Source of the DNA: a virus
Taxonomy: Duplodnaviria > Caudoviricetes
DNA length: 59,865 nucleotides
Reading direction: 5' to 3' (one strand)
IMG/VR virus record: IMGVR_UViG_3300034196_000123
Span: 1-59,865 of that record
Below are positions 9,838 through 59,339 of this stretch, in pieces. Position 1 is the stretch's first letter, and each line of letters starts with the position of its first letter. The translations under genes were made by a program, and so were the position numbers. The notes beneath the pieces are model-generated. The model did not search any database. It had not been told where the DNA came from and saw only the letters and a program-made list of their open reading frames with translations.

Positions 9838-9878
9838 ACCGCCCCCCGTTCCAGCGACCGTCGGGAGGGTGAAGGCTC

Positions 9879-27156: not shown

Positions 27157-27897
27157 CTACTCCGCGGCGATCTGGTAGACGAGCTGGTACCGCTCCGACG
27201 ACATGACCATCCGATTCACCTCGACCGCCCGGTCGCCGGCGTACGCCACGCGGGTCACCTCGAGGACGGGGTAGGCGGCGGGCAGCTGCAGGTGCTCGGC
27301 CTCCCGCGGCCGCGGTGGTCGCGCCGCCACCAGCTCGCTGTAGTGGGTGAGCGTCCACCCGGCCTCTTCGACGCGGGCGTACATCCCGCCGGGGCCGGTG
27401 TCGGTCTGCTCCAGGTGCGCGGCTTCGGCGACGTCCACGGGGATCCAGCTGGTGGCCAGCTGCACGACCTCGGCGTCGGCGCGCATGATGCGCTCGCGGA
27501 CGGCGACGTCGGTGCCGGGCGCGACGTCCAGGAGCGGCGCGACGTCGACCGGGACCGTCTGCCGGAACGTCTTCACGGTGACCGCCGGCGCCCAGCCGCC
27601 GGTCCGGGCGTCGCTCATGAACGTTCCGCGGCCGGCTGCGCGCTCGGCGGCGCTGAGGCGGTTGCGGGCGAGCCTGGTGACGGGCTTGCGCTCGCTGACG
27701 AACCAGCCGCGGCCGGACACGCTGAACACGAGGCCTTCGGCGCGCAGTTGGTCGACGGCGTTCTGGATCGTGTTCCTCGCGACCCCGAACCGGGCCATGA
27801 GCTGGGTGCCGGACGGCAGGGGAGTGCCGGGACCGGCGTCGGTGACCTCGCGGCGGAGGGTGTCGGCGATCTCGACCCATGGGCGGCGCACTGGCAT
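27157..27897 (-). CDS. GntR/HutC-family regulator with UTRA domain (KorSA/TraR-like)
   Basis: PGTPLPS..QLMARFGVARNTIQNAVDQLRAEGLV...GRGWFV wHTH; UTRA motifs QLATSWIP, RAVEV, ERYQLVY. Confidence 0.9.
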   Translation of the reverse strand: MPVRRPWVEIADTLRREVTDAGPGTPLPSGTQLMARFGVARNTIQNAVDQLRAEGLVFSVSGRGWFVSERKPVTRLARNRLSAAERAAGRGTFMSDARTGGWAPAVTVKTFRQTVPVDVAPLLDVAPGTDVAVRERIMRADAEVVQLATSWIPVDVAEAAHLEQTDTGPGGMYARVEEAGWTLTHYSELVAARPPRPREAEHLQLPAAYPVLEVTRVAYAGDRAVEVNRMVMSSERYQLVYQIAAE

Positions 27898-28496: not shown

Positions 28497-28524
28497 ACCT
28501 GACATAATCATAATTATCGGTGCA
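28497..28524 (-). other. dif: dif-like XerC/XerD recombination site
   Basis: Minus strand TGCACCGATAA-TTATGA-TTATGTCAGGT: 11-6-11 layout with ATAA/TTAT inner arms like E. coli dif (GGTGCGCATAA-TGTATA-TTATGTTAAAT). Confidence 0.75.
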
Positions 28525-28964: not shown

Positions 28965-29212
28965 CGGCAGCTGCTGGCAGCCGTTGTGGCAGCCGTGCGG
29001 TGGGACGCTGTGGTTCGCTGTGGTACTCCCCCACGAGTCGATCATGCGTTGACCAGGCGTTTGGCACGCTGCGCTACATGGTGGGACGGGTTGCCCGGGC
29101 TCTTTTAATCCGCGGGCTGAGGGTTCGATCCCCTCGGGGCCCACCGCTTGACCTGGCAGTATGCGCCCCTGCATAGATCATTTAGGGGGGTGTGGCAGCC
29201 GTTCTGGCAGCT
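28965..29212. repeat. Integrase arm-type repeats flanking attP core
   Basis: TGGCAGCCGTT(G/C)TGGCAGC at 28975-28993 and 29193-29211, on both sides of the core. Confidence 0.65.
29102..29145 (+). other. attP: attP core identical in form to the 3' half of tRNA-Lys(UUU)
   Basis: CTTTTAA anticodon loop, GAGGG-TTCGATC-CCCTC T arm, GGGGCCCACC acceptor end; 5' half of tRNA absent; near integrase. Confidence 0.85.
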
Positions 29213-29673: not shown

Positions 29674-31014
29674 TCAGGCCGGGACCAGCGCCGCGGCGGG
29701 CGGGTCCTCGCCGTCATCCTCGCCGCGCTCGCCGGCGCCCTCGCCGGCGGTCTGGCCGGCATCCGGCGTGGGCGGGACGCCGTCCGGCCACAGCAGCTCG
29801 TCGACCCGCTTGGCGTTGGTGTCGAGCATCCCCGGGAGCAGGTGCTGGTACGTGTCCTGCGTCAGCTGGGTCTGGGAGTGCCCCAGCTGCTCCTTGACCT
29901 CGCGCACGTCGGCCTTCAGGAACAGCAGCAGCGACGCGGTGGTGTGCCGCAGGTCGTGGACCCGCAGGTCCGACTCGATCGGGTCATCGACGACGCTGCC
30001 GTCGCGCATCGTCCACGACTTCCCGGTACCCGAGGTCCGGACGCCCGCCTTGACGGCGAGGTCACGCAGGTTCTGCCAGTCCCGACGGGCGTCCAGCGGG
30101 TAACCACCGCGCTGGGCGAACACCAGGTCGGCGATCTCCTCCCAGCCGGGCGGCTGCCAGCCCTTCCAGTTCGCGCCGTCCTCGAGTTTCGCTACGCGCT
30201 GGGCGAGCCGGAGCCGCTTCAGGATGGGCAGCAGGTGCGCGGGGATGGGCAGGCGCCGGATCCCGGCGGTGGACTTCGGCGGAGTCAGCACGAGGTTCTG
30301 CCCACGGGGGCGGCCTCGTAGGCGGGTCAGTGACCGCCGGACCGTCAGGACGCCGGCGTCCAGGTCGACGTCGTCCCACAGCAGGCCGAGAACCTCGCCC
30401 TGGCGCAGGCCGAGGGCGATGGCGATGCCCCACCGGGCGTGCGCCGCGTCGTCGGTGCAGGCGCCCAGCAGGCGACGGCACTCCTCCACGGTCAGTGGCA
30501 TGACTTCCTCCCGGACGGCCGCGGGTGGCTGGACGAGCTTGGCGACGTTCATGCTGACTCGCTGCCGCTGCCAGGCGACCTGCAGGGCGCGGGCGAGGAT
30601 GCGGTGGCACTGCAGGATGGACGTCTCGGACAGCCCCGCCTCGCGCATCGTCGTGTGCAGCTGCTCGATGTGCTCGGGGGTCAGCTTGATCAGCCGGTGC
30701 CGTCCCACGTTCGGGATGATCCAGTTCCGGAGGTAGGAGCGGTACCCGTCGATGGTGCGGGGCCGGACCTTCGTCGGGGCGATGTTGTCGATCCAGTGGG
30801 TGAGCCACTGCTCGACGGTCGTCTTCGGGTCGTGGAGGGTCCCCCCGCGGGCCAGGACCGACTGTGCTTCCTGCAGCTTGGCCTTGGCCTCGGCGCGGTT
30901 CTTGGCCCGCAGGTACTTGCGGATCGGCTTGCCGTCGGCTGTCCACCCGACGTGGATCTGGACGCGCCATCCGGCGCCGCTCTTGTAGATCGAGCCTTCA
31001 CCCGGGGATCGCAT
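29674..31014 (-). CDS. int: Tyrosine integrase
   Basis: GLRQGE, PPKS, HDLRH, LGHS, TQDTY catalytic R-K-H-R-H-Y residues; N-terminal arm-binding GEGSIY. Confidence 0.95.
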   Translation of the reverse strand: MRSPGEGSIYKSGAGWRVQIHVGWTADGKPIRKYLRAKNRAEAKAKLQEAQSVLARGGTLHDPKTTVEQWLTHWIDNIAPTKVRPRTIDGYRSYLRNWIIPNVGRHRLIKLTPEHIEQLHTTMREAGLSETSILQCHRILARALQVAWQRQRVSMNVAKLVQPPAAVREEVMPLTVEECRRLLGACTDDAAHARWGIAIALGLRQGEVLGLLWDDVDLDAGVLTVRRSLTRLRGRPRGQNLVLTPPKSTAGIRRLPIPAHLLPILKRLRLAQRVAKLEDGANWKGWQPPGWEEIADLVFAQRGGYPLDARRDWQNLRDLAVKAGVRTSGTGKSWTMRDGSVVDDPIESDLRVHDLRHTTASLLLFLKADVREVKEQLGHSQTQLTQDTYQHLLPGMLDTNAKRVDELLWPDGVPPTPDAGQTAGEGAGERGEDDGEDPPAAALVPA

Positions 31015-44245: not shown

Positions 44246-44282
44246 GATCGCATAACCCCACGATCGGCCCCCGAGGGAACCC

Positions 44283-45070: not shown

Positions 45071-45105
45071 CCCACCCCACCCGGACCCGAGACCCGGAGA
45101 CGATC

Positions 45106-45690: not shown

Positions 45691-45698
45691 GGAGCCCC

Positions 45699-45962
45699 AT
45701 GTACCCCTCCCACCGCGCCCAGCACCGCGCCGCCGCCCTCGCCCTCCGCGAGCAGCTCGGCCGCCGCCCCACCGGCGACGAGTACCAGCAGACCCGCAAG
45801 ACCGTCGCCGCCGACCGCCGCCGCACCGAGCGGGACGACCCCTGGGCCCGCACCCGCACCCGCACCCAGCGGCGCGCCGCCGTCCTCGCCCGCCGGGCCC
45901 GCCGCGCCACCGTCAGCTCCTTCACCGGCCTCGTCCGCGCCGCCGTGCGCCCCACCCGCTGA
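45699..45962 (+). CDS. Arg-rich hypothetical protein
   Basis: GAGGAG RBS. Confidence 0.55.
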   Translation: MYPSHRAQHRAAALALREQLGRRPTGDEYQQTRKTVAADRRRTERDDPWARTRTRTQRRAAVLARRARRATVSSFTGLVRAAVRPTR

Positions 45963-45972
45963 TCGGACCCCC

Positions 45973-46125
45973 ATGACCCCCGAACTGCTCGCCGAGGCCA
46001 TCGCTCGCGTCCTCGACCGCTCCCCGGAGTTCCAGGACGCCAACCCCCTGCCCGACGACCCCCACGTCGTCGCCGTCACCGACCACCAGGGCGACGAGTA
46101 CTTCCTGACCGTGGAGCCCGCATGA
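45973..46125 (+). CDS. Small hypothetical protein (50 aa, not in ORF track)
   Basis: MTPELLAEAIARVL...YFLTVEPA; ATGA overlap. Confidence 0.55.
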   Translation: MTPELLAEAIARVLDRSPEFQDANPLPDDPHVVAVTDHQGDEYFLTVEPA

Positions 46126-46583
46126 GCCTGACCAACGGCCTGGCGTCCGCGGTGAACACCGTGATCGAGCGCCTCACCGGCCAGCCGTCCACCCCGTTCA
46201 CCGGCCACCAGGCGCCCACCGACCACCAGCTCGTCGAAGCCGTCCGCCTGCTCGCCAGCCGAGCCCACCGCACCCTCGGCGTCGGGTTCGACGCCGACCG
46301 CGCCGCCCTCGCCGTCGAGCGGTGGCTACAGAGCCCCGACCGCCCCACCGACCCCACCATCACCGAGCAGATCGCCGACTGGACCGACGCGATCCTCGAC
46401 GACATCCAGGCCGACCTCGACAGCTCCACCCTCAGCGCCGGCGGCCACTACTGGAGCGCCGACAGCTTCACCACCACCGGTGAGCGGCTCCCCAGGGGCG
46501 TCCTCACCTTCACCCGGTACCCCGACGGCCCCCAGGTCACGGTCCGCCTGTCCCTGGACATCACCGAGGGGCGTCCCGCGTGA
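46122..46583 (+). CDS. Hypothetical protein
   Basis: ATGA/GTGA overlaps. Confidence 0.65.
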   Translation: MSLTNGLASAVNTVIERLTGQPSTPFTGHQAPTDHQLVEAVRLLASRAHRTLGVGFDADRAALAVERWLQSPDRPTDPTITEQIADWTDAILDDIQADLDSSTLSAGGHYWSADSFTTTGERLPRGVLTFTRYPDGPQVTVRLSLDITEGRPA

Positions 46584-46945
46584 CCGCCCACCCCGAGGTC
46601 GTCCTCGACGTCCACGGCCCCGACCCCCGACAGCTCATCGTCCCCGGCACCCCACCCACCCCCGGCCCGTCGACTGACGACGGCCATGGAACCGACCCCG
46701 AGAGGACCCAGCCCATGGACACCACCGCGACCGAGTCGAGCGGGCCGCCGCGGCGGAAGCAGGTGCGCGGCGCCGAGCGACAGGAGCTGATGCAGCGGGC
46801 CGCGAAGCTCTACAAGGCGAAGGGCGGCACCGTGCGGTCCGTGGCTACCGAGATCGGCATGTCCTACGGCGGGGCGCACCGGCTCCTGAAGGACGCCGTG
46901 CGGGCCCGGCTGCTGGACGGCATGAAGTCGCGGGGCACCCGGTGA
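46580..46945 (+). CDS. Small HTH DNA-binding protein (alternative start 46715)
   Basis: KLY...GGTVRSVATEIGMSYGGAHRLL HTH. Confidence 0.7.
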   Translation: MTAHPEVVLDVHGPDPRQLIVPGTPPTPGPSTDDGHGTDPERTQPMDTTATESSGPPRRKQVRGAERQELMQRAAKLYKAKGGTVRSVATEIGMSYGGAHRLLKDAVRARLLDGMKSRGTR

Positions 46946-47274
46946 TCGGCGTGACGCGGGAGCCGTCCCGGATCGAGACCGCGGTGTCCCAGCTGATGCA
47001 GCGCGTCGGGATCATCGACGCCAGCGAGGCCCGCGCGGTCGCGGACGTCGTCGCGTCGCTGCCGGCGCTCCCGCCGGTGACGGCGACCAGTGACCGGGGG
47101 GCGCTCGTCGAACGGGCGTTGCGGACGGCGCGGGCCGGGTACACCGCGGCGGAGGAGGTCGGGGAGCTGCCGCCCGTGTTGCTGCGGCAGTTGGTCGTCG
47201 ACCTGGCCGCGCACGCCGTGTCGTGGGCCGCGGCCCTCGACCGGGAAACGCCCCGTCAGCAGGTCATCCGATGA
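46942..47274 (+). CDS. Hypothetical protein
   Basis: GTGA/ATGA overlaps. Confidence 0.6.
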   Translation: MIGVTREPSRIETAVSQLMQRVGIIDASEARAVADVVASLPALPPVTATSDRGALVERALRTARAGYTAAEEVGELPPVLLRQLVVDLAAHAVSWAAALDRETPRQQVIR

Positions 47275-47756
47275 CTGTCGAGACGATGCCCGCCGCCATC
47301 GTGGTCGACGAGGTGGCCGACCGCCGAGAGGCCGAGCAGCGGCGCCGCATCTACGCCGAGGCCCTCGCCCGCAGCTACACCGGGGACCTGCCGTGCCTGC
47401 TGTGCGGCCTCACCCTCGACCCCACCGCCGTCGAGGCCTGCGACTGCCCGGAGCCGGTCGTCCCCCAGGTCGACGACATCGTGGCCGGCCAGCAGGCCGT
47501 CATCGAGTCCCTGCGCGCCGAGCTGGGCATCGCCCGCGCGCAGATCGACCGCGACCACCTGACCATCCTGCGGCAGGCCGTCGGCCTGGCCGTCCTCGAG
47601 GCCGAGTTGACGGCCACCCTGGAGGGGCGACGGCATGACCGGGCAGCGTTCGACGAGTTCGTGGTGGCGGCCCGCCGGGCGCTCGCGGGCGAGGCTGGCC
47701 CGTCACGCCCGGGACCGGGCTCCGTGGTGGCGCCGCAGTCGCGTCGCGGTGGCTGA
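47271..47756 (+). CDS. Hypothetical coiled-coil protein
   Basis: ATGA overlap; CxxC..CxC then heptads. Confidence 0.6.
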   Translation: MTVETMPAAIVVDEVADRREAEQRRRIYAEALARSYTGDLPCLLCGLTLDPTAVEACDCPEPVVPQVDDIVAGQQAVIESLRAELGIARAQIDRDHLTILRQAVGLAVLEAELTATLEGRRHDRAAFDEFVVAARRALAGEAGPSRPGPGSVVAPQSRRGG

Positions 47757-47770
47757 GCGCGGCTGACGGG

Positions 47771-47820
47771 ACGGCGAAGGGCCCCACCTCCGATGGCCTG
47801 GAGGTGGGGCCCTTCGCCGT
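47771..47820 (+). terminator. Strong terminator hairpin
   Basis: 21-bp perfect inverted repeat ACGGCGAAGGGCCCCACCTCC. Confidence 0.8.
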
Positions 47821-48277
47821 GCCGGAGTGCATCAGGAGTTGACCGCAGCGGCTGCCTGGCGGTACATGTATGATCGCAAAAGAGGTGTAGCACTCGTCAC
47901 GGCTCCAACCGTGCGCGTGCCGGGACCGACCCGCTGGTATGGGCGAGGTCACCCGACTTCGACCCCGGAGACCAGCCGTCCCAGTACTGACCGGGCGGGC
48001 CCCCAGCGATCACACAACTTCATACCCACGAAGATCATGCCGTCTCCCCGTGGGGTCAGTGTCGTGCCTCGACAACGCTGAGCACCTCAGCGGTCGACGC
48101 CTGACGCCGGCTCCCGGAGACGGTCACCACCGAGCCCGGGACCCGACGTCCCGGGCTCGAGCGCTTTGCGGCGAGGCGTGTGCCACACGTAGGCCAGACC
48201 CAGCAACGACGAACGGCCTCCAGGTCCTGGCGAGGGAGGAGGCCGGTCGTCACCCTCGACCGGAAGGTGAAGGCACC

Positions 48278-48460
48278 ATGAAGGTACGCCGAGTCGATCC
48301 CCAACGCCCAGACCCCGACGGCCTGCCGACCCGCTGGGGCCTGATCATCGCGATCAGCGCCGGCATCGGCGTCCTGGTCGACCAGCCCCTCGGCCCGGGC
48401 CCCGGCCTCGCCGCCGCCATCGCCGCGGCGGCCGCGCTCCACAAGGTGCTCGCCGAGTAG
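48278..48460 (+). CDS. Small membrane protein (60 aa)
   Basis: GAAGG RBS; RWGLIIAISAGIGVLV and GLAAAIAAAAALH hydrophobic segments. Confidence 0.6.
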   Translation: MKVRRVDPQRPDPDGLPTRWGLIIAISAGIGVLVDQPLGPGPGLAAAIAAAAALHKVLAE

Positions 48461-48474
48461 CCGGCCAGGCAACG

Positions 48475-48512
48475 CGAAGGGCCCCACCCCCGGGTCGGGG
48501 TGGGGCCCTTCG
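48475..48512. terminator. Hairpin between convergent genes
   Basis: 16-bp perfect inverted repeat CGAAGGGCCCCACCCC. Confidence 0.8.
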
Positions 48513-48519
48513 TCGTCGC

Positions 48520-48996
48520 TCAGGCGTTGCCCGTGGCGATCGCCCGGGCCGTGGTGCCGGGCGTCAGGACGTCCCGGGCCAGGCGCAGCGCCTCGTCGTA
48601 CGTGAAGCGGGTGACCGCCAGGTGTTTGGGGGTCCGCTCGCTGGGTCGGGGGTCGAGCGTCCAGTACGCCATGGCCGTCAGGACCTGCTGCGGGTCCCGG
48701 GTCGGGCTGATCGTCCAGCCGCCGGCGCTCTGGCGCAGCCACAGCTGCCGCACCGGGGCGGTGTCGGCGAGACTGGGGTTGGTGAGCTGGACCTCGGTCG
48801 TGACCGGCTCGATGGCCGGCGCCGCGGTGTCCTCGTCCGGGCCTGTCCGCGGTGCGCCGGACAGGGTCTGGTCGGCGTAGTGCGGCACGCCGGGGATGAG
48901 GGTGCCGGTGGAGTCGCAGTGCAGGCAGCCGATGCCGGTTGGGGTGCCCTGGCACTGGGGGCAGGTGACGGCGGTGGGGTCGGAGATGAGGTTCAT
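48520..48996 (-). CDS. Hypothetical protein with DnaJ-like CxxCxG zinc motif
   Basis: GGAGG RBS; CPQCQG..GCLHCDSTG. Confidence 0.65.
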   Translation of the reverse strand: MNLISDPTAVTCPQCQGTPTGIGCLHCDSTGTLIPGVPHYADQTLSGAPRTGPDEDTAAPAIEPVTTEVQLTNPSLADTAPVRQLWLRQSAGGWTISPTRDPQQVLTAMAYWTLDPRPSERTPKHLAVTRFTYDEALRLARDVLTPGTTARAIATGNA

Positions 48997-49055
48997 GGTC
49001 GTGTCCCTCCGGGTGGTGTTCGGGGTGCGGGGCGGGGTGGTCACGCCCTCCGCAT

Positions 49056-49105
49056 GTGGAACACATTACGCGCCATGATGAGTGTGCGCAATACGGGTGG
49101 AACAC
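49056..49105 (-). promoter_or_regulatory. Leftward promoter flanked by GTGGAACAC direct repeats
   Basis: Minus strand TTGCGC-N17-TAATGT (49091-49063); repeats at 49056 and 49097. Confidence 0.65.
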
Positions 49106-49106
49106 T

Positions 49107-49316
49107 TTACTCGGGCTGTGCGTCGATCTCCGGGCTGTGCGCGTCCAGCGCAGCCTCCACCTCGCGCAGCCGCCAGATCCGACCTGCGCGCAGCTCAGCC
49201 ACCGGCGCCGGCCACCACGCTGTGCGGGTGAGCGCGTCGACCCGCTGACGGGACACCGTGCGGCCGCGCGCAGCCAGCAGCTCGCGCACCTCCGCTACCC
49301 CGACCAGCGCCTCCAC
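49107..49316 (-). CDS. AlpA-like small DNA-binding protein
   Basis: LVGVAEV..LL....VSRQRV..L....WPAPVAELRAGRIW. Confidence 0.75.
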   Translation of the reverse strand: MEALVGVAEVRELLAARGRTVSRQRVDALTRTAWWPAPVAELRAGRIWRLREVEAALDAHSPEIDAQPE

Positions 49317-49679
49317 GTCGCGCAGCGTACCTGCGCGACCCACCTGCGCGGGCCCCTGTGCGGCCACCTGTGCGCCGCACAGCCCTGCGCGGGCCTCCCG
49401 ACTGTGCGCCGCACAGCCCTACCCTGTGCGGCGCACAGCCGGGCGCACAGGGGTTGCGGGTTGACAACCCCCCGACTGTGCGCGCACAGTGGATCCGCTA
49501 GCCCAGCTAGCGACCACGTGTAGCACGACGAGCGACGCGCAGCGTCCGCTCAGCCCCGGCGCACAGCCCGCCGCACATCCACCCCCGCGCACAGCCCGCA
49601 CACCTGGAGCCCCCGTGCCCAACCCCGCACACCCGGGCGCACAGCCGCCCGCACAGCCCGACGCGCAGCCCGCGCAGCC
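49114..49679. repeat. GCACAGCC 8-mer array 1 (clt/TRS-like)
   Basis: Exact copies at 49377, 49411, 49433, 49561, 49589, 49639, 49651 (+) and 49114, 49133 (-), plus many CTGTGCG/GCGCAGCC variants. Confidence 0.8.
49461..49512 (+). promoter_or_regulatory. Transfer-module promoter with 17-bp operator
   Basis: TTGACA-N18-CACAGT then CGCTAG-CCCAG-CTAGCG (49496-49512). Confidence 0.65.
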
Positions 49680-49998
49680 CGTGAACGGCGCCGCGCAGGC
49701 CGCCCGCCACGCCGCCGTCGCCCACGCGCACGCCGCGACCCCCGCCCGGCTGCCCTGGTACGCCGGACCCCGCGTCCGCGCCATCACCGCCGCGGCCGCC
49801 GCGTTCCTGGCCCTCGACCTAGGCGTCATGGGCTCGACCCTGACGTCCACCGGCCTGCTCCGCCTGGTCCTGCTCACCGCGATCGCGTTCGTCGTCGTCC
49901 GCGTCACCTGGCGCCCGTACCTCGCCGCCCTCCGCTCGTCCCTGCACGTCACCCGCCCCACCGCCACCTCGAGCTCCACCGGCGACCGGGACGCCTGA
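49615..49998 (+). CDS. 2-TM membrane protein (Spd-like)
   Basis: TGGAG RBS; two hydrophobic helices; first gene after promoter. Confidence 0.65.
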   Translation: MPNPAHPGAQPPAQPDAQPAQPVNGAAQAARHAAVAHAHAATPARLPWYAGPRVRAITAAAAAFLALDLGVMGSTLTSTGLLRLVLLTAIAFVVVRVTWRPYLAALRSSLHVTRPTATSSSTGDRDA

Positions 49999-50216
49999 TG
50001 GCCGGCCACCCGGACACCGACGTCGAGGTCTGGCGGCGTCAGGGCAAGCGTCGCCGCCTGCTCACGACCCGCCGGCCCGTCGAGGCGAAGGACACCCCGC
50101 AGACCCGCGTGGTGATCCAGGAGGCGTGCCGGGTGGCCCGCGTCCCGTGGTCCGACCTGGAGGTCCGCGTCCGGATCCCCAGGTCGGCCCGCTGGGAGAC
50201 CTTCTACGTCGACTAG
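49998..50216 (+). CDS. Small basic hypothetical protein
   Basis: TGATG overlap; 72 aa. Confidence 0.6.
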   Translation: MAGHPDTDVEVWRRQGKRRRLLTTRRPVEAKDTPQTRVVIQEACRVARVPWSDLEVRVRIPRSARWETFYVD

Positions 50217-50372
50217 TGCCCTGACCTGCCCGGATGCCCTGTTGTCGGGTTGTTGGTGTCCGGGCCCTCCCTTACGCGCAGGCGCGCGCCCGACAAACAT
50301 CCCGCCCCGATCGGGGCTGGGACCGACAGGCGGACCCGCCGGCCTCCGACAGGCGGGAGAGGGGAGAACCCC

Positions 50373-50822
50373 GTGTCGTCCTGGGCCGTGTTCGCCATCT
50401 CGGTGGTCGCAGCGTTCGCCCTGCACTGGCTCTCCGGGGAGTTCCACCCGCCACGGATCGGGACGTGGGTCGAGCTGACCCTGTCCGTCCTCGCTGGCAT
50501 CTGCGCGGTGTCCGCGTCGGTGCTGGCCGTCGACCAGGGCTGGCTCATGGGGACTCTGTCGACGCTGGCCCGGGCCGAACCGGTCCGGATCTTCTTCGGC
50601 CTGGTCGCCTGCGCCGTCCCGCTGTGGTTCCTGCTGGCGATGCTCCCGGCGTCGTGGTCCCGGTTCGGGATCTCCTACCTCGCGCTCGCCGTGTTCATCA
50701 TCTCGGTCCCCCTGCAGGCGTACGCCTTCTCGGGGAAGGTCCCGCACGGCATCAGCGTCGGGACCGTCGAGACGGCGCAGCAGTTCAGGGCGATCACCCG
50801 TGACTGGTGGGTGCGTGCCTGA
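50373..50822 (+). CDS. 4-TM membrane protein (Spd-like)
   Basis: GGGGAG RBS; four hydrophobic segments. Confidence 0.7.
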   Translation: MSSWAVFAISVVAAFALHWLSGEFHPPRIGTWVELTLSVLAGICAVSASVLAVDQGWLMGTLSTLARAEPVRIFFGLVACAVPLWFLLAMLPASWSRFGISYLALAVFIISVPLQAYAFSGKVPHGISVGTVETAQQFRAITRDWWVRA

Positions 50823-51793
50823 TGGACCCCATCTCGATCACGATGATCCTGCTGCTCGCCGGGTGCGGGGCCACGTGGCTCGACAACCGGTGGGACGCCG
50901 CGATGGAACGTGTGCGCGGCGGCCAGCCCACGAACCCGTGGGCCCGCCCGATCCCGACGCCGGTGCGCGCAGCCGCACAGCACGCTGTGCGCGCTGGCCG
51001 CGCAGCCGCCGTCGAGCACCGCGGCAGCGGCAACGGGACCTGGCGGCCGGCGCCCGAGGCGGCGCACAGCTCGGTCCCGCACAGCACCGACGACCCGGCA
51101 CCCGTCCCCGTCGCGAAGCCGCACAGCGGCCCGGTCGCACAGCCCGGTCCGCGCGCAGCCCGCGCAGGTGTGCGCGTGTGGTTCGGCGCAGGTGTCGAGG
51201 CTGTGCGCGAGGGGACGCGCGCAGCGCCCGAGGGGTGGCGGGCCGGTGCACAGCCGGTCCCGTCGCCACGGACCCCGGACCCTGCGCCCGACCCCGCGCC
51301 CGCGCAGCCACCCGCACAGCCCGTCCCCGTGCAGCCCGCTGCGCCCGCACAGCCCGACGCACAGCCGCCCGCACAGCCCACCGGCGACCAACCGGCCGCC
51401 ACCGCACCGACCGCAGGAGACCCCATGGGAGAGCTCGGACCCATCCCCACCGAGATCGCCGACCACGCCACCCTCATCCAGGTGTTGCGCCGCGTCGGTG
51501 CCGCGATCGAGGACGACATGGGCGCCGCCGGCGGCGGCATCCGCTCCCTGATCGCCAAGCTCGCCGAGCTGGCCACCAAGGCGCAGGCGGTCCGGACGCT
51601 GCCCGAGCGGTGCACCCCGGACATCGGGGGCCCCACCCAGGGCCGCCTCGACGAGCAGGCCGCCCAGGCCGCGCTCCTGCACCGCCGTGTCACCGAGGCG
51701 ATGGACCAGCTCGGTGCGCTGCAGGCCGACCTGCAGCACCTCGCCGAGGCCACGACCGGCGCCCAGCAGACCGCGACCGCCGCACGCGGCTGA
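50822..51793 (+). CDS. Membrane-anchored Pro/Ala/Gln-rich protein with helical C-domain (TraA-like position)
   Basis: MDPISITMILLLAG N-terminus; directly upstream of TraB-like gene. Confidence 0.7.
   Translation: MDPISITMILLLAGCGATWLDNRWDAAMERVRGGQPTNPWARPIPTPVRAAAQHAVRAGRAAAVEHRGSGNGTWRPAPEAAHSSVPHSTDDPAPVPVAKPHSGPVAQPGPRAARAGVRVWFGAGVEAVREGTRAAPEGWRAGAQPVPSPRTPDPAPDPAPAQPPAQPVPVQPAAPAQPDAQPPAQPTGDQPAATAPTAGDPMGELGPIPTEIADHATLIQVLRRVGAAIEDDMGAAGGGIRSLIAKLAELATKAQAVRTLPERCTPDIGGPTQGRLDEQAAQAALLHRRVTEAMDQLGALQADLQHLAEATTGAQQTATAARG
50967..51378. repeat. GCACAGCC 8-mer array 2
   Basis: Exact copies at 51137, 51248, 51314, 51347, 51359, 51371 (+) and 51199 (-), plus GCACAGC variants in other reading frames. 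Confidence 0.75.
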
Positions 51794-51831
51794 CCCGTCA
51801 CCCCGTCCGACACCCTGGAGAGGAGGTCACG

Positions 51832-53769
51832 ATGACCCGGACCCACGACCGGCACGCCGACGTCGAGTCGCGCCGTCAGGCCCGCCGGTGGCGGCGCCTG
51901 GAGCGTCGCCTCGACGGCCGGCCCTGGCACCAGCGTCTGTGGTGGGTCCGGGGCCCCGTCCTGCTGGCCCGCGCCGTCCGGCGGATCGTCGCCCTGGTCG
52001 TGTCCCTGCCGGGTCGGCGCCGGCGGTTCGGCTGGCCCCTGCTGGCCGCTGTCGCGGCCGCGGTGCTCGTCGCGCCGCTGCCGTGGGCGCTCGCCGCCGT
52101 CCTCGCGGTGGCCGCGGCGTGGCTGCGGGAACGCCGCGGCGGACCTCGCCGGGTCGTGTCCGACCGGGAGGCGTGGCTGTGGGCCGGCGCGCTCGCCGTC
52201 GTGGCCGTCGCGCAGCAGCTGCTCGACGGCCGCCCCTGGTGGGCCGCCCCGGCCGCGACCATCCCGACGTCCGTCGCGTGGATCTGGGGGAGGCGTACCC
52301 GCCGCCCGGGCCGCTTCGAGCAGGCGTGGGCGGAGCACGTCGCCGGCGAGCAGGATTGGGCCCGGTCGACGGTGCGGGACGTCCGGGTGAAAGTCGACCG
52401 GAAGGGATACCCCGACGGCACGTTCACCCTGGTCGTCGCGAAGGGGCAGACCGCGAAGGACGTTGCCACGAAGGGCGACGAGCTGGCCTCCCACCTGGCC
52501 GACGCCTTCCCGGTGCTCACCGCTGGGTCACTGATGGTGTCCCACGGGCACGGCGACCCGATCCGGCAGGCCCGCGTCGCGATCGCGAACCCGCGCCGTC
52601 AGGCGGAGCCCCGGTACTGGCGGGAGCCGTCCCTCGACGAGCGGACCGGGCTCTACCAGATCGGCGACACGATGCACGACGGGTCCCGGGCCCAGATGTG
52701 GCAGCACGCCGGCGGCGTCAACACCGTCGCCGTCGGCGGCCCAGGGAAGGGCAAGGGCGGCTTCACCGTCGTCACGGACGTCGAGGCTGCGATCAGCCGC
52801 CACGTGGTCCTGATCGTGCTGGACGGGAAGCGGGGCGCCGGTGTGCCCGCGCTGCGCTACGGAGCGTCCCTGTACGCCCGGACCCCCGGGCAGTGGATCG
52901 TCGCGTGGGACGCCGCCATGACGATCATGCGGATGCGCGCCGACGAGTACGGCGAGGCAGGCAAGTCGCTGTGGTCCCCGCAGTCCGACCCGCTCATCAA
53001 GGTCACGTGCGACGAGTGGCGGTACATCCACCGTGCCTGGCCGCAGATGCGCGAGGACGCCGTCTGGTGGACCGGGCAGACCAGAAGCTACGGCGGGCAC
53101 CTGCACCTCAACCTGCACCGCGGCGACGGCGACGGCTACGGCGACACCGAGATCAGAAGCAACATGTACGCGAACGGTCAGGCGTGGATCGGTCCGCAGG
53201 GCGACCTGTCCGCGGAGAACTGCGCCGTCCAGTCCTGGGGCGTCAAGCCCGCGACCCTGCCCCCGTACCCCGGGTGGGGCGACCTCTGCCAGACGATCAA
53301 CGGGGACGTCGGCTCCGCGGTCCGCGCGAAGAACCTGTGGCTCCCCACGAACGCCGAGGTCGCCGAGTTCGGTGTCCCCGCCCCCCACGGCACCGCCGAC
53401 GACATCATCCGGGAGCACGCCGTGTTCCCGTCCCTGCCGCCGGCGATGCAGGCCGTCCTCGACACCGCCCGGGAGGCGATCGAGTCCGGCCGCGCCGACC
53501 AGCCCGAAGCGGTCGAGGAAGCCCGGGAGCGGGCCGCCGCGACCCAGGGCCGCCCCGAGACCGTGGACGCCCTGATCCTCGCCGCGCTCGCCAACGCCCC
53601 CGACCAGGCCGCCGGCGCCACCGACCTGGCGAAGGCCATCGGCCGTGACCGCGCCTACGTGCAGGAGCGCCTCACCGTGCTCCGCGACACCGGGCGCGTC
53701 CTGCAGGAGGGCCCCCGCCGCCCGTACCGCCTACCCGCCCCCGCCCAGGAACTGGAGCCCGCCTCGTGA
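51832..53769 (+). CDS. traB: TraB/FtsK-SpoIIIE-like membrane DNA translocase
   Basis: GAGGAGG RBS; N-terminal TM helices; Walker A VGGPGKGKG, LDGKRG, Walker B IKVTCDE, Arg-finger region TRSYG, IRSN; C-terminal winged HTH (ATDLAKAIG..RAYV..RL..L..TGRV...YRL). Confidence 0.75.
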   Translation: MTRTHDRHADVESRRQARRWRRLERRLDGRPWHQRLWWVRGPVLLARAVRRIVALVVSLPGRRRRFGWPLLAAVAAAVLVAPLPWALAAVLAVAAAWLRERRGGPRRVVSDREAWLWAGALAVVAVAQQLLDGRPWWAAPAATIPTSVAWIWGRRTRRPGRFEQAWAEHVAGEQDWARSTVRDVRVKVDRKGYPDGTFTLVVAKGQTAKDVATKGDELASHLADAFPVLTAGSLMVSHGHGDPIRQARVAIANPRRQAEPRYWREPSLDERTGLYQIGDTMHDGSRAQMWQHAGGVNTVAVGGPGKGKGGFTVVTDVEAAISRHVVLIVLDGKRGAGVPALRYGASLYARTPGQWIVAWDAAMTIMRMRADEYGEAGKSLWSPQSDPLIKVTCDEWRYIHRAWPQMREDAVWWTGQTRSYGGHLHLNLHRGDGDGYGDTEIRSNMYANGQAWIGPQGDLSAENCAVQSWGVKPATLPPYPGWGDLCQTINGDVGSAVRAKNLWLPTNAEVAEFGVPAPHGTADDIIREHAVFPSLPPAMQAVLDTAREAIESGRADQPEAVEEARERAAATQGRPETVDALILAALANAPDQAAGATDLAKAIGRDRAYVQERLTVLRDTGRVLQEGPRRPYRLPAPAQELEPAS

Positions 53770-54599
53770 CCCGCCTCCGTGCCCACCTCGACCGGGGCCG
53801 CGGCATCTGCTACCTCGTCATGCTCATCGCAGGCGGGATCTCGATCTACGCGAACGTCGCGTTCCAGCTGATCGAGCGCGCCGAAGATGGGACGTGGATG
53901 CCCCGCCGCGACCCGCACCTCGACGCGATGGCGCTCGCCGCGGCCGCGCCGATCCTGCTGTGGGCGACCCTGGAGGTCCTGATCCGGGTGGAGGGCCGCG
54001 GCCTGGCCGCGTGGACGGTCCGGGTCGGCACCACCCTGGTCGCGGCCGCGTCGTTCATCGCGTCGTTCCAGAACATCCGGAACCTGCTGCTGTCGTTCGG
54101 GGACTCCCAGCTGACCGGCTGGACGTACCCGCTCGGCATCGACGGTGCACTCGTCGCGGCCGCCGCGGCGCTGTGGCAGATCCGCGTCACCGCCACCGCC
54201 GCGCCGGCCGCCGCGGTGGGGGAGGCCCCGGCCGTGGAGGCGCCGCGCTCGCCCGCTGAGCCGCGCCGCCGCAAGGCCGCCGAGCCGCTGCCCGCCGCGG
54301 CGCCCACCGAGGCGCCGACCACACCAGCGGTGGACCCGGCCCCGGTCCCCGCCGCGGCACCCACCCCGCCGCCGGCGCCCCGCCCCCGCGCAGTCACCGC
54401 CCGCCCGGCCGCCGCCGTCCAGCCCGACACCAACGCGCGGGACGCCCGGATCCGGGCCCTCGCCGCCGAAGGCAACGGCCGACCCACCGTCGCCCGGACC
54501 CTCCGCGACGAGGGCTACTCGATCTCCGACACCGACCTCGCGACGATGCTCCGCCAGTTGCGCGCCGAGACCGAGGGGAGGGCCGAGCAGCATGCCTGA
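53766..54599 (+). CDS. DUF2637 / SpdA-like membrane protein with C-terminal HTH
   Basis: ISIYANV, AAAPILL, ASFIASF.NI..L...GD......YPLGIDG.LV signature. Confidence 0.8.
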   Translation: MTRLRAHLDRGRGICYLVMLIAGGISIYANVAFQLIERAEDGTWMPRRDPHLDAMALAAAAPILLWATLEVLIRVEGRGLAAWTVRVGTTLVAAASFIASFQNIRNLLLSFGDSQLTGWTYPLGIDGALVAAAAALWQIRVTATAAPAAAVGEAPAVEAPRSPAEPRRRKAAEPLPAAAPTEAPTTPAVDPAPVPAAAPTPPPAPRPRAVTARPAAAVQPDTNARDARIRALAAEGNGRPTVARTLRDEGYSISDTDLATMLRQLRAETEGRAEQHA

Positions 54600-55086
54600 C
54601 GACCTCCCGGCGTGGGGCACCCCCGACGTCCCCCCGTGGGGCACCCCGGAGTCGATGGAGACGTGGCAGGTTCACCGGACCGTCACCGTCGTCCATGTCG
54701 TCACCGTCCCCGGGCCCCGGCCCGGCCTCGCGCTCGCCGTCGCAGCCGGCGTCGCGATCGCCGCTATCGCCGCCGTCCGTGTCGCACCCGCCGAGGGCGC
54801 GCCGGCGACGACGCCGGCGTCGTGGACGGTCCCGGTGTCCCTGCCCCCTGAGTTGCCCGCCGGGTCACCGGTGCCGTCCGGGCCGTCGCCCTCGACGTCG
54901 TGGATGCCGCCCGCCGACACCCCCACCTCGAGCCCCACCCCGACGTCCACGCCGACGCCGAGCCCGCCGGCGGGCACCGTGTCGCCGACGGACGTCCCGA
55001 CCACCGACCCCACCACGTCGTCCGAGCCCCGCTGGGGGTTCGCCGATCGCGTCGCCCACGAGCTCGCGACGCGCGGCGCACGGTGA
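54592..55086 (+). CDS. Single-TM Pro/Thr/Ser-rich protein
   Basis: LALAVAAGVAIAAIAAV helix then PTS-rich tail. Confidence 0.6.
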   Translation: MPDDLPAWGTPDVPPWGTPESMETWQVHRTVTVVHVVTVPGPRPGLALAVAAGVAIAAIAAVRVAPAEGAPATTPASWTVPVSLPPELPAGSPVPSGPSPSTSWMPPADTPTSSPTPTSTPTPSPPAGTVSPTDVPTTDPTTSSEPRWGFADRVAHELATRGAR

Positions 55087-55223
55087 CCCTCACCGTGCGC
55101 TGCTCCTGCGGCCTACCGATGCAGATCAAGGCCGGTGCCTGCGACCCGCCGTACCGCTGGTGCTGGCGCTGCGACCGTCAGCCGGCCCAGGTCTGGTGGT
55201 GGCCGTTCCCGCAGGGCACCTGA
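55083..55223 (+). CDS. Small Cys/Trp-rich protein
   Basis: GTGA overlap; CSCG...CWRCD. Confidence 0.5.
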   Translation: MTLTVRCSCGLPMQIKAGACDPPYRWCWRCDRQPAQVWWWPFPQGT

Positions 55224-55346
55224 CCACCCCCACAGACTGGATGCCGTCAGCCCCTCGCTCGGGGAGAGGCTGGCGGCATCCTGCACGACACACTGGACAT
55301 CGACCGCGCGGACCCGAACCCGCACCGCGCCACCTCTGGAGGACGA

Positions 55347-55658
55347 GTGACCCGCCGAGAGAACCGAGAGAACCGGCTACGCCCGGCCCGCATCCAGGGC
55401 AACCACGTGTTCTCCGTGCGGATCCCCCCGGACAGCCACGCGCGGGTAGCCGAGACGGTCCGGCGCAGCGACCTCGGCCCCGGCGACACCCTCCGCGCCA
55501 TCGTGGACGCCGGCGTCGCCGTCCTCGACACCGCCCGCCGCGCCGGGATCACCCCCCTCGCGGCTGCCGCGCAGCTGGTCGCCGACGGCCAGGCCGTTGC
55601 CGACGTCCGGTCCCGTGCCGTCGACATCGCCGCCGCCCCGCACGACCCTGGCCGCTAG
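55347..55658 (+). CDS. Possible ribbon-helix-helix protein
   Basis: GGAGG RBS; VFSVRIPP..HARV....RRS.L.PGD.LRAIV. Confidence 0.55.
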   Translation: MTRRENRENRLRPARIQGNHVFSVRIPPDSHARVAETVRRSDLGPGDTLRAIVDAGVAVLDTARRAGITPLAAAAQLVADGQAVADVRSRAVDIAAAPHDPGR

Positions 55659-55696
55659 CCCGGTTATGCGGTGACGCTCGTGGCATCATCCAGGCC

Positions 55697-55834
55697 ATGA
55701 CCCGCGCGCTCGCCCGCCTCGCCTTCCTCACCGTCCTCGCGGTCGCTGCCGCCGCGCTCGCCCGCTGGGTCGACACCCGGTACGGCGAGGACTTCGCTGC
55801 GTCCCGGACCGCCGCGCCGTACTGGGTGGAGTGA
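55697..55834 (+). CDS. Small single-TM protein
   Basis: MTRALARLAFLTVLAVAAAALARW; GTGA overlap. Confidence 0.5.
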   Translation: MTRALARLAFLTVLAVAAAALARWVDTRYGEDFAASRTAAPYWVE

Positions 55835-56001
55835 CCGTGGTCGACGTCCCCGACGAGGTGCGGCGCATCGAGCCGACCGCTGACCAGCGGGCCTTCGCCC
55901 GGGTCATGCGCCAGACGTACGCGGCGCTGATCCTGGAGGGGTTCACCGAGGCTCAGGCCCTCACCCTGATCGGTCACCTGCTGGCGGCGAACCGGCCATG
56001 A
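55831..56001 (+). CDS. Small hypothetical protein (56 aa, not in ORF track)
   Basis: YAALILEGFTEAQAL motif seen in actinophage small proteins; coupled on both sides. Confidence 0.6.
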   Translation: MTVVDVPDEVRRIEPTADQRAFARVMRQTYAALILEGFTEAQALTLIGHLLAANRP

Positions 56002-56177
56002 GCGACGACACCAGCGTGCAGCGGCCCGCGTCGACCGTCAGCGAGACGTGCTGCTGCGGCGCGTCGTGCTCCGTCACCGCCCCCCGGTTGGCCGGCGCCC
56101 GCCGGACGGTCGAGGCATGGCGTACGGGGCACCCGTGCCCGAAGGCGACGCCCGCCCGGCCCGGGTTCCGGCCGTGA
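55998..56177 (+). CDS. Small Cys-rich protein (59 aa, not in ORF track)
   Basis: ETCCCGAS...WRTGHPC; ATGA/GTGA overlaps. Confidence 0.55.
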   Translation: MSDDTSVQRPASTVSETCCCGASCSVTAPRLAGARRTVEAWRTGHPCPKATPARPGFRP

Positions 56178-56836
56178 GCCGCAAGGCCTTCGACCCGGAC
56201 CGGCACTGCGGTGGCCGGTCCCGGTCCGCGGACGGCCAGCCCTGCACCCTCGGCAAGGGCCACGGCACCGACCACCGCGGGTTCGGCCACTGCAAGTTCC
56301 ACGGCGGCGCCACCCAGAACGGGACCGTCCACGCCGACCGGGAACGGGTCGTCCAGGAGGTCCGCCGCCTCGGGCTGATCGACGACGTCACCATCGACCC
56401 GGAGATCGCGACCCGGGAGCTGCACCGCGAGATCCTCCGCTGCGTCCAGGCGATCAAGTTCGCCGAGGGGAAGATGAACGAACTCCCCGACGATGACGAC
56501 CTGGTGGTCGGGGTCCGGTACACCCGCACCAAGCACACCAAGGGCGGGGAGCACGGCGCCCAGACCGAGACCGTCCAGGAAGTCGCCGCCGCCCCGCACC
56601 AGTGGCTGCAACTGTGGCGCGCCGAACGGCAGCAGCTGGTCCGCGCAACGTCGGTCGCGATGACCAGGGACCTGCAGGGCCGGATCGTGGCGTCCCTGGA
56701 ACAGCAGGGCGCCCTGATCGGGGACCTGATCGACGGGATCCTCGCCGACCTGGCGCTCACCCCGCAGCAGCAGGCCGCCGTGGACGACGTCGTCACCCGG
56801 CACCTGACCCTCATCGAGGGCCGGGCAGCGGGGTGA
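56174..56836 (+). CDS. terS: Terminase small subunit (probable)
   Basis: CGG.....QPC...G.GTDH.G.GHCKFHGG motif; directly upstream of TerL. Confidence 0.7.
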   Translation: MSRKAFDPDRHCGGRSRSADGQPCTLGKGHGTDHRGFGHCKFHGGATQNGTVHADRERVVQEVRRLGLIDDVTIDPEIATRELHREILRCVQAIKFAEGKMNELPDDDDLVVGVRYTRTKHTKGGEHGAQTETVQEVAAAPHQWLQLWRAERQQLVRATSVAMTRDLQGRIVASLEQQGALIGDLIDGILADLALTPQQQAAVDDVVTRHLTLIEGRAAG

Positions 56837-56840
56837 CCGT

Positions 56841-58361
56841 GTGGCGCTGACCGCGTGGGCCGCGGCACGGCGCCGCTACCAGCCCGCACCCCGACGGTTC
56901 TCGAGCCCGTTGGAGTACGGGCGCGCGGTCATGCCCAAGATGGTCGTCACGCCGGCGCTGCAGCTCATCTCCGACGCCCTGGTGGCCGTCGAGGCGGGTG
57001 ACATCGACCGGCTGCTGGTGTCGATGCCCCCGCAGGAGGGCAAAAGCTCCACCGTCGACCGGCTGGGCATCGGGTGGGCGCTGAGCTGCCAGCCGCTGCT
57101 GCAGTGCGGCATCGCGTCGTACAGCGACCGCCTGGCGACCAGGTGGTCCAGGAGGATCCGCAACGACATCCAGGCCAGCAACCGCCGCGGCGGTGTCGAC
57201 CTCGGGCTGCAGCTGGCCCCGGACCAGTGGGCGGCGGACGACTGGCGCCTCGCGAACGGCATCGGCGGGGTCTACGCGGCGGGCATCGGGGGCCCGTGGT
57301 CGGGGTTCCCGCTCGACCGGCTGGTCGTGGACGACCCGCACAAGAACCGCAAGGAAGCCAACAGCACGATCATGCGGGACGCCGTGTACGACTGGTACAC
57401 GTCCGCGGGCACCGCGCGGCTGTCGGCCGCAGGCCGGATCGTGATGGTGATGACCCGGTGGCACTGGGACGACCTGGCGGCCCGGGTGCTCGACGCGGAC
57501 AAGGTCGGCCGATGGCACGTGATCAACATTCCGGCGCAGGCCGACCCGGAGATCGCCGACCCTGACCCCCTCGGCCGCACCCCCGGCGTCTACATGATCT
57601 CCGCGCAGGGGCGCACCGAGGAACAGTGGGAGAAGCGCAAGGAAGAGGCCGCGGAAGAGTGGACGCCCCTGTACCAGGGCGCCCCGGCCGACCCGGGGAA
57701 GAAGTTCTTCGACCTGAGCAAGATCCGCTGGTGGCACCTGTCCCGCGACGGCAAGCAGATCATCTGCGGGCCGCAGACGTGGAACCTGCACGACTGCTGG
57801 CGGTTCGCCACGGTGGACACCGCGAACACCGAGAAGGCGGGCAGCGACTTCACCGTCGTGTCCGCGTGGGCGATCCCCCCGGACGGGTCCCTCGTGCTCC
57901 TGGACGTCGCCCGGGAGCAGCTCAACGAGGACAAGCAGCTCGGCCTCGCGCGGCCCCTGGTGGAGCGGTGGGCCCTCGACGTCGTCTACGTCGAGGCCAG
58001 CATGCGCGGCACCCTGCTGGTCCGCCAGGCCGTCGCTGAGGGCTGGCACATCGAGGACCTGCACGCCGACCGGTCCAAGACGCTGCGCGCGGCGCCGGCG
58101 GCCCGGCTGGTCCGGCACGGCCGGGCATGGTTCCCCGCCGAGCACGAACACCTGATCGTGATCAAGAAGGAGATGAAGCAGTTCCCGGCCAGCAAGCACG
58201 ACGACTTCGTGGACACCTTCGGCTACGCGAGCCTCGTGCGGCACACCGACTGGGCGCCGCCGCTGACGGGCCGGCCCCCGGCATCGGACCCGGCGCTCGC
58301 CGAGCTGCGGGCCGCGACCCCCGACGCGGACGGGTTCGACCCGATGGACACGCCGTTCTGA
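56841..58361 (+). CDS. terL: Terminase large subunit
   Basis: MPPQEGKS Walker A, LVVDDPHK Walker B, TRWH.DD, LYQG.P, VDTA, FP..KHDDFVD. Confidence 0.95.
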   Translation: MALTAWAAARRRYQPAPRRFSSPLEYGRAVMPKMVVTPALQLISDALVAVEAGDIDRLLVSMPPQEGKSSTVDRLGIGWALSCQPLLQCGIASYSDRLATRWSRRIRNDIQASNRRGGVDLGLQLAPDQWAADDWRLANGIGGVYAAGIGGPWSGFPLDRLVVDDPHKNRKEANSTIMRDAVYDWYTSAGTARLSAAGRIVMVMTRWHWDDLAARVLDADKVGRWHVINIPAQADPEIADPDPLGRTPGVYMISAQGRTEEQWEKRKEEAAEEWTPLYQGAPADPGKKFFDLSKIRWWHLSRDGKQIICGPQTWNLHDCWRFATVDTANTEKAGSDFTVVSAWAIPPDGSLVLLDVAREQLNEDKQLGLARPLVERWALDVVYVEASMRGTLLVRQAVAEGWHIEDLHADRSKTLRAAPAARLVRHGRAWFPAEHEHLIVIKKEMKQFPASKHDDFVDTFGYASLVRHTDWAPPLTGRPPASDPALAELRAATPDADGFDPMDTPF

Positions 58362-58898
58362 CGGGGAGCCGTCGAGGTGCTGCACGGGGTGCAGTTCTTC
58401 CCCAACATGTCGACGAACGGCTTGGGGACGTGAGCGGGGACGAGCGGTCGGCGGCTGGAGTGATCATTGCTGGCCAGGGCCAGCAGCCGGGCGAAGAGCC
58501 TCGTGCCCCCTGATCCCTGTCCGACCACCGTTCAGCGACACGCCCGAGGGGGAGACACGCCGTGTCTACCTGTCGGGGGAGTGCCGCGGGCCTGTGACCT
58601 GCGGCGACTGTCGAGGCGACTCATATTCATGCACAGGCTGTGGAGCGTTGGGGCGCCTTATCCACGACTTTTCCACAGGGCGGGATGGGGTTGTGCCCAG
58701 GTCGTGCACACACCGATTTCGTCCGTGCCCCGGTCTCTACCTATGTTCGTGCCGACCCCACAGGTCAGCCCTCACCCATTCGGCCATCGGGCGCGAGCAA
58801 AGTCTGCTGTCGGCGGGGCGGGCTTTACTGGGGGTGCAAAACACGAGAGGCCCGGTGCTCGTAACACCAGGCCGCCCGCACGGAGAGGAAGCCCCCCG

Positions 58899-59072
58899 TT
58901 GTCTCGCAGCAGCAAGGTACCGCCCACCCCTGACCTCTTGCCTCCCGCGCCGCCCCCGCCGGCCGCACGCGCCCGCTGGTGGGTCGTGGCGGCCGCGGCC
59001 ATCACCGCGATCGGCACCGCGATCGCCGCCACAGGGGGCCATCTCGACCTGGCCTTCCGGCTGACCTGGTGA
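58899..59072 (+). CDS. Small single-TM protein (57 aa)
   Basis: GGAGAGGA RBS before TTG; WWVVAAAAITAIGTAIAA; followed by hairpin. Confidence 0.55.
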   Translation: MSRSSKVPPTPDLLPPAPPPPAARARWWVVAAAAITAIGTAIAATGGHLDLAFRLTW

Positions 59073-59080
59073 ACGTGGAC

Positions 59081-59114
59081 GAGCCCCCCCTCGCGCAACG
59101 GTCGAGGGGGGCTC
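59081..59114. terminator. Hairpin between convergent genes
   Basis: GAGCCCCCCCTCG/CGAGGGGGGCTC near-perfect stem. Confidence 0.65.
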
Positions 59115-59148
59115 GCGCCGATCAGGATGCCGGACGCCACCGACAGGC

Positions 59149-59337: not shown

Positions 59338-59339
59338 GA

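Follow-up and report, generated by a model that had tools for sequence, protein, structure and literature searches.

The closest described counterparts of the element considered here are the plasmid-phages of Streptomyces, which conjugate and also make particles according to the relevant sections of PMC4170104. The replicons pFP4 (NC_017833), pCQ4 (NC_019307) and pZL12/ZL12 (GQ919031) each combine head, tail and terminase genes with an FtsK-like Tra. In pCQ4 and pZL12 the tra gene closely precedes the terminase gene and has the same orientation, and in all three replicons a divergent GntR gene sits beside tra. Transfer of pZL12 needs tra and two adjacent genes (excerpt of PMC3583192). The pFP4 record contains terminase, portal, capsid, DUF2637, FtsK-like Tra, GntR and tyrosine recombinase genes, and with them the combination of terL, traB and DUF2637 for which an earlier account of the present DNA (the sequence-only reading) had proposed a survey of phages. 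As conjugating, particle-making plasmid-phages have been published, with records in which this gene combination is present, the novelty implied by that account is not supported, and the idea of a phage-conjugation hybrid is itself not new.

Two further groups of elements share parts of this set. The rolling-circle plasmids pJV1 and pSN22 have a compact direct-repeat clt downstream of traB as well as adjacent traR and traA genes, and the clt of pJV1 is described as nine repeats of CCGCACA[C/G][C/G] (excerpt of PMC3583192). The AICEs pSAM2, SLP1 and pMEA300 are reported to combine a tyrosine integrase, an excisionase, a tRNA attachment site and an FtsK-like Tra (parts of PMC2440964 and PMC3218068). 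In addition, an FtsK-like gene is present in the isolated virion genomes of the Thermobifida phage P1312 and the Streptomyces phages Galactica, Hiyaa, Spocter and Keanu. Its neighbours include membrane genes in Galactica and an integrase gene in P1312; a literature search found no paper on these phage genes.

The stretch of DNA analysed here, referred to as the window, is a whole virus record of 59,865 bases assigned to the Caudoviricetes. Gene scans covered 72 genes against PHROGs and 60 plus 15 against Pfam. They identified portal, protease, major capsid, tape measure, endolysin and terminase genes, the head, tail, lysis and terminase functions that the sequence-only reading had placed in the same genome, along with genes for a tyrosine integrase, a repressor, a cro-like protein, an excisionase, an O-like initiator and a ParB-like protein. 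As in the plasmid-phages, virion genes and a Tra module meet on one replicon, here that of an uncultured element. The main features of the phage backbone are the following.

27157..27891, minus strand: GntR-UTRA regulator with a likeness of 26-33% to TraR/KorA-type genes, located 22 kb away from the module
28497..28524, minus strand: dif-like XerCD site between the GntR gene and attP
29102..29143, plus strand: attP core, the 3' half of tRNA-Lys(TTT), with identity to host tRNAs from the anticodon loop on
29674..31014, minus strand: tyrosine integrase with the R-K-H-R-H-Y catalytic motifs
56841..58361, plus strand, as the module: terminase large subunit, 1.8 kb downstream of the module

The attP core is situated beyond the 3' end of the integrase gene, and the presence of both implies that the contig represents an integrating phage in its excised state. 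The AICE set of integrase, excisionase, tRNA attachment site and Tra is present, but unlike AICEs the phage has a full virion and lysis set and an O-like initiator, and the AICE replication modules RepSA, RepAM and Prim-pol were not found among the scanned genes. It differs from the plasmid-phages in its lambdoid integrating backbone with integrase, tRNA-Lys attP, excisionase, repressor/cro and O-like initiator. Furthermore, pFP4 and pZL12 carry ParA, and pFP4 also a primase-polymerase, whereas the phage has neither, and its GntR gene is distant from the module. The scans (72 genes against PHROGs, 60 plus 15 against Pfam) found a ParB-like gene but no ParA, plasmid Rep, rolling-circle Rep or second integrase, which agrees with the earlier statement that the module lacks a separate integrase and a rolling-circle Rep.

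A pattern derived from the dif-like site has exactly one match per genome in five of five actinomycete genomes and 0 in the control. The site points to a circular phase, which is compatible with transfer and with segregation alike. In the non-coding segment 58627-58710, past terL, there are five DnaA-box-like 9-mers on one strand (two with one mismatch, three with two), about 30.1 kb from the dif-like site and hence almost exactly opposite it on a 59.9-kb circle. This clustering, a post hoc observation, is weak and was matched by 9 of 2000 random scatters; over the whole window the count of DnaA-box-like sites is not above chance. Upstream of the GntR-UTRA gene lie two palindromes (27916-27927 and 27962-27973) with the core CTACTTGCATAG, which are the only CTA-N6-TAG sites of the window and likely autoregulatory operators. 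As a Kor regulator of the module the GntR-UTRA protein was rejected because its two palindromes do not recur there, and no Kor regulator was identified adjacent to the module.

The module itself consists of seven open ORFs on one strand at about 49.6-55.1 kb, which mostly abut or overlap, have a GC3 similar to that of the remaining phage genes and lie directly upstream of the terminase, as tra does in pCQ4 and pZL12. Its features and those of the region leading up to it are as follows.

49056 and 49097: direct repeat GTGGAACAC, just past the end of the 69-aa ORF
49107..49316, minus strand: small divergent ORF of 69 aa, a possible DNA-binding regulator from its position only, with no Pfam or PHROG match
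49116..51376: CGCACAG(C) repeat field, the candidate clt, with clusters at 49116-49656 and 50974-51376
49461..49490, plus strand: promoter-like site with TTGACA, an 18-nt spacer and CACAGT as a non-consensus -10
49475-49490: perfect 16-bp palindrome of two repeat units, overlapping the promoter-like site in its -10 region
49615..49998, plus strand: membrane protein with 2 predicted TM; the longest ORF runs from 49489, the likely start is 49615
49998..50216, plus strand: 72-aa ORF of no Pfam or PHROG family
50373..50822, plus strand: 149-aa membrane protein with 4 predicted TM
50822..51793, plus strand: 323-aa gene in the traA position, with a helical C-terminal part
51832..53769, plus strand: TraB-like translocase of 645 aa
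53766..54599, plus strand: DUF2637 membrane protein of 277 aa with a Pro/Ala linker, candidate spread protein (Pfam E 1.3e-5, over the cut-off)
54592..55086, plus strand: 164-aa single-TM protein rich in Pro and Thr

The earlier claim that the module has its own promoter is partly retained: the TTGACA at 49461 is the only plus-strand copy in the window and its spacer is 18 nt long, but the -10 element departs from the consensus and a promoter scan called 0 sites. Membrane genes are likewise recovered, encoding the 2-TM and 4-TM proteins, the DUF2637 protein and the single-TM 164-aa protein. So is the gene in the TraA position, which is kept upstream of the TraB relative in two other loci, L001 and L002 (E 1.6e-17 to L001); its product falls outside the NCBIfam TraA family, and an Atlas search gave only scores under 0.9. 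The gene formerly called DUF2637/SpdA-like keeps the first of these names and loses the second. SpdA of pIJ101, pJV1 and pSN22 is a small DNA-binding protein with sps, whereas the window protein is a 277-aa membrane protein and no sps palindrome CGTCACGTGACG occurs in the window. It also has no detectable similarity to SpdB2, and one of its relatives carries an HTH Pfam tag (PF13936). From the place of DUF2637 proteins in transfer regions we infer a role in spreading.

The 645-aa translocase comprises an N-terminal membrane segment, an FtsK motor and a C-terminal winged helix with the motif GRDRAYV. Hydropathy gives one TM above the threshold, and further hydrophobic helices appear in the AlphaFold model. 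Alone, the sequence has no Pfam, PHROG or NCBIfam match and finds only a weak HTH match in the PDB. A profile search retrieved 91 relatives at E 0.001 or better, and an alignment of 75 sequences (A2) was made from the query, P0002 and 73 relatives, with short fragments and a few weak matches omitted. The profile of these 75 matches the structures of FtsK (2ius, E 2.7e-14), TcpA and EccC, while an FtsK_SpoIIIE Pfam match is found in 22 of them. The AlphaFold model (pLDDT 90, pTM 0.79) has FtsK motor domains as its best Foldseek match (E 1.9e-11), and the alignment of the family profile to pJV1 TraB is full-length, reaching from membrane segment to winged helix (hmmsearch E 7.6e-44; hhalign 99.6%), all of which upholds the TM-FtsK-wHTH architecture read from the sequence at the outset. 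Domain order is shared with the TraB proteins of pJV1 and pSN22 at about 17% identity. In the HMM comparison with TraB and FtsK suggested at that stage, alongside the full-length alignment to pJV1 TraB, the translocase has no match to NCBIfam plasmid_TraB (NF041214) at E 0.01. The cut-off of this model is 800, compared with scores of 784.5 for pJV1 TraB itself and 425.7 for pFP4, and five of seven relatives tested gave weak matches.

The Walker A motif reads GGPGKGKG and Walker B contains D394 and E395; the catalytic residues K308, D394, E395, R418 and R442 are kept, and a conserved motor Gln is replaced by His429, with His in 11 of the 75 rows. The GKG variant of Walker A occurs in 44 of the 75 relatives and likewise in pWTY27 Tra, a protein that is required for transfer (excerpt of PMC3583192). 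In a FastTree analysis of 38 motor domains, with no chromosomal FtsK row and weak deep nodes, the translocase falls into a clade of its own apart from classical TraB; this quick tree does not separate a TraB from an FtsK origin. The clade is also separate from the Tra proteins of the plasmid-phages, and the translocases of P1312, Galactica, Hiyaa, Spocter and Keanu group with pZL12.71c, again apart from that of the window. The clade is missed by Pfam, NCBIfam and PHROGs, and surveys that use them therefore undercount it. Searches by tblastn of the translocase against plasmid and phage collections and of the DUF2637 protein against phages gave no match (50,697 phage records), four viral contig scans and one genome contig scan yielded 0 relatives of the translocase or module, and a metagenome scan yielded two short loci, apparently one sequence, without phage context.

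The strongest evidence for a TraB-type module is the repeat field. The clt-like repeats reported earlier are highly clustered: 28 of the 36 CGCACAG sites of the window are located within 49116-51376, whereas random scatter put at most 9 sites into 2.3 kb in 5000 trials. Matches to the pJV1 clt consensus CCGCACA[C/G][C/G] are similarly concentrated, with 14 of 18 falling within 49219-51377. Repeats before 49376 are all in minus orientation (5/5), those at 49376-49482 are mixed, and on the right 14 of 16 are in plus orientation. Within two ORFs of the field GCA-CAG codes for 10 of 19 Ala-Gln pairs as opposed to 3 of 92 elsewhere, and CGCACAG also occurs in other reading frames and outside genes. 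Since GCA is a rare codon, its enrichment in these pairs argues that the DNA motif is the selected unit. Among known TraBs the recognition helix GRDRSWV (pJV1, pSN22) goes with CCGCACA repeats, while five TraBs with an SRPW[VIL] helix and one with TRQWL go with TGACA-type repeats. The GRDRAYV of the window shares five of seven residues with GRDRSWV and the other 74 rows of the family at most three, in a 7-residue match that was chosen after the fact. Based on these likenesses, the field is the probable cognate clt of the TraB encoded in the module, albeit with an atypical position and orientation: the repeats extend over 2.3 kb upstream of traB in both orientations and in part inside genes; those of pJV1, pSN22 and pWTY27, by contrast, form compact arrays just downstream. 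The match between helix and repeat lends itself to a cheap and sharp test of binding.

The genomic setting of relatives was surveyed by a profile search of 401 actinomycete genomes (E 1e-35, three candidates scored per genome), which gave at least 32 places in 26 genomes. Twenty places with long flanks were examined and 12 left out, mostly short contigs or places near contig ends. Plasmid or AICE markers (ParA, integrase, Prim-pol, GntR, DUF2637, NUDIX) accompany 14 of the 20, three have none and three are phage-linked. At G310:C28 (L171) the translocase lies inside a phage gene set with DUF2637, terminase and portal genes, and at G402:C18 it also lies inside a phage gene set; at G268:C22 it is found some 12 kb beyond the endolysin gene of a prophage, and the phage link is ambiguous. 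Phage-borne translocases occur at several places in the motor-domain tree, and this scatter suggests repeated capture by phages. In L171 genes for FolE, a radical SAM protein, and QueD-like and TGT-like proteins (7-deazaguanine DNA modification) lie between translocase and terminase at 6597-9580, and in L176 a single mobile region (6352-10798) has a TraB-like gene and, directly after it, a gene for an FtsK that includes alpha and gamma domains. Element-specific 7-mer clusters lie over the DUF2637 genes of L164 (14793-15997), L167 (2922-3866), L171 (14225-16223) and L178 (3701-5605), a CGAGACG cluster being common to L164 and L167, and these may act as clt or be bound by the DUF2637 proteins. 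In P1312 (L006) a 7-mer cluster covers the gene following the translocase (20208-21109).

The phage probably has an actinomycete host, perhaps a non-mycelial one. Among the matches listed from 5 of 64 parts scanned, the tRNA-Lys att core is most similar to a Blastococcus MAG (41/42 nt), and none of the 121 att-match loci listed has a Streptomyces title. The att pattern is common to about 1600 stretches, its near-exact form is found in 0 of 401 genomes, and 0 of 158 genomes in the family of the Blastococcus MAG hold close TraB relatives. The best terminase match (37%) is to an Arthrobacter phage and the best capsid match (48%) to a Gordonia phage.

Observation thus provides a gene set, an FtsK fold, a repeat field, and an integrase and attP shared with virion genes. 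It is proposed, with reasonable though far from complete confidence, that the TraB-clt module would, with no need of virions, move the excised or replicating circle as dsDNA across cross-walls or to a cell in contact. The individual steps are modelled on Streptomyces TraB, as outlined in part of PMC4447253. The membrane-anchored TraB motor would oligomerise into a ring and its winged helix would bind the CGCACAG repeats of the excised circle, both by analogy with the Streptomyces protein. The ring would pump the whole circle as double-stranded DNA into the neighbouring cell or compartment, the DUF2637 and other membrane proteins may help spreading, and in the recipient the phage integrase would insert the circle at tRNA-Lys. 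Spread through hyphae or septa presupposes, as an assumption, a mycelial host. The combination of an FtsK-fold pump and dense clt-like repeats makes it likely that the phage can pass between cells without virus particles, and the module is real and probably functional. The earlier proposal that a tailed phage, here an integrating one, harbours a TraB-type module together with a probable clt is in this respect supported by fold, repeats, integrase and attP. A more far-reaching version, which is decidedly unlikely as a whole, would see a phage able to exist as a virion, as a tRNA-integrated prophage and as a chromosome-like circle on which the DnaA-box cluster lies opposite dif. In a non-Streptomyces and perhaps non-mycelial actinomycete, such a phage would move from cell to cell by a previously unrecognised TraB clade that has reached the helix-repeat pair of pJV1 independently or by a domain swap, and when integrated it could mobilise the host chromosome through its clt.

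The same pump could instead serve a single lineage, driving circles through closing septa and into spores or buds in the manner of FtsK/SpoIIIE and in concert with the dif-like site and the ParB-like protein, in which case unrelated recipients would not be reached. FtsK-orienting motifs flip polarity at one point, and so do the repeats; the dif-like site at 28497-28524, the ParB-like gene without ParA and a host that is perhaps non-mycelial fit such a role as well. This explanation is nevertheless unlikely, given that FtsK_gamma is not one of the 25 Pfam families most often matched by the 75 relatives, that the winged helices of these relatives score as IclR/MarR type, that relatives mostly reside in plasmid and AICE transfer regions, and that the repeat fits the proven clt consensus of pJV1. 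Distinctly unlikely is also that the module represents a recently captured remnant of an AICE or plasmid, silent or decaying, which gives the phage no transfer route. Its ORFs are all open with tight junctions and ribosome-binding sites, the GC3 of traB (0.95) is like that of phage genes, the translocase retains its catalytic residues, pump, repeats and promoter-like site occur together, and the layout recurs in pCQ4, pZL12 and G310:C28; a remnant would on the other hand suit the slightly higher GC of the module (0.755 vs 0.731), the absence of Rep and of an adjacent Kor gene, and the lack of a phage relative with the module (0 loci in the viral contig scans; 50,697 phage records).

It is highly unlikely that TraB is real and the CGCACAG field serves another protein (the 69-aa ORF, the C-terminus of the DUF2637 protein or ParB) as an operator or parS-like region, with clt elsewhere or missing. 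The perfect two-unit palindrome overlapping the -10 region and the occurrence of sites in both orientations are what such a target might look like, and in L164, L167, L171 and L178 the DUF2637 gene overlaps with a 7-mer cluster that ranks first or second in density, but in the window that gene has no CGCACAG site and the match to the pJV1 clt comes together with a matching helix. An assembly chimera of phage and plasmid is extremely improbable. The window is a single metagenomic contig in which a sequence check found no terminal repeat, and a poly-G tract that may be an assembly artefact lies near its end (59735-59756). One read run only contains the stretch, a peat metagenome that is probably the source sample, so that support from its unitigs is not independent, and unitig records 1 and 2 overlap by 5 nt only (41263-41267). 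However, unitigs 41263-53108, 53079-53223 and 53194-58154 match the window without differences at an even bin depth of about 15-20, one spanning early genes and reaching into traB and another leading on from there through terL, and the listed unitig joints have sides of only 21-22 nt and a depth of 2-8. Read support across the junctions, the check proposed earlier, therefore joins the module to the early genes and to the terminase on its two sides. No exact repeat of 16 nt flanks the module, the only repeat on its two sides being one GC-rich 14-mer, in line with the absence of att repeats stated in the sequence-only reading. These results support that the module is neither an obvious chimera nor a separately bounded element; it encodes no replication or att functions itself and relies on the phage backbone.

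Cell-to-cell transfer by the TraB-clt module, if real, would allow an integrating temperate phage to reach receptor-less cells and to spread without lysis; host DNA could also be mobilised from an integrated clt. Such transfer is reported for plasmid-state phages, and cis-mobilisation is discussed for AICEs in part of PMC11571958. A transfer test on an integrating phage was not found in the literature searched, which lay mostly outside subscription journals. Different in the window are the lambdoid integrating backbone without ParA or primase-polymerase, the separate TraB clade, the upstream repeats in both orientations and the dif-like site.

Rfam and ARAGORN scans of the window gave nothing useful. 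A SpoVK/CbbX/EccA-like AAA ATPase is encoded amid the early genes at 41039-42214 (SpoVK E 1e-78, under the cut-off). The gap between terL and portal (58361-59865 plus 1-2799) comprises about 4.3 kb of small genes, part of them on the opposite strand, including one for an Arc-like repressor. In the virion region, 9879-13328 encodes an 1149-aa protein that has a GDSL esterase domain and repeats with a 60-bp period.
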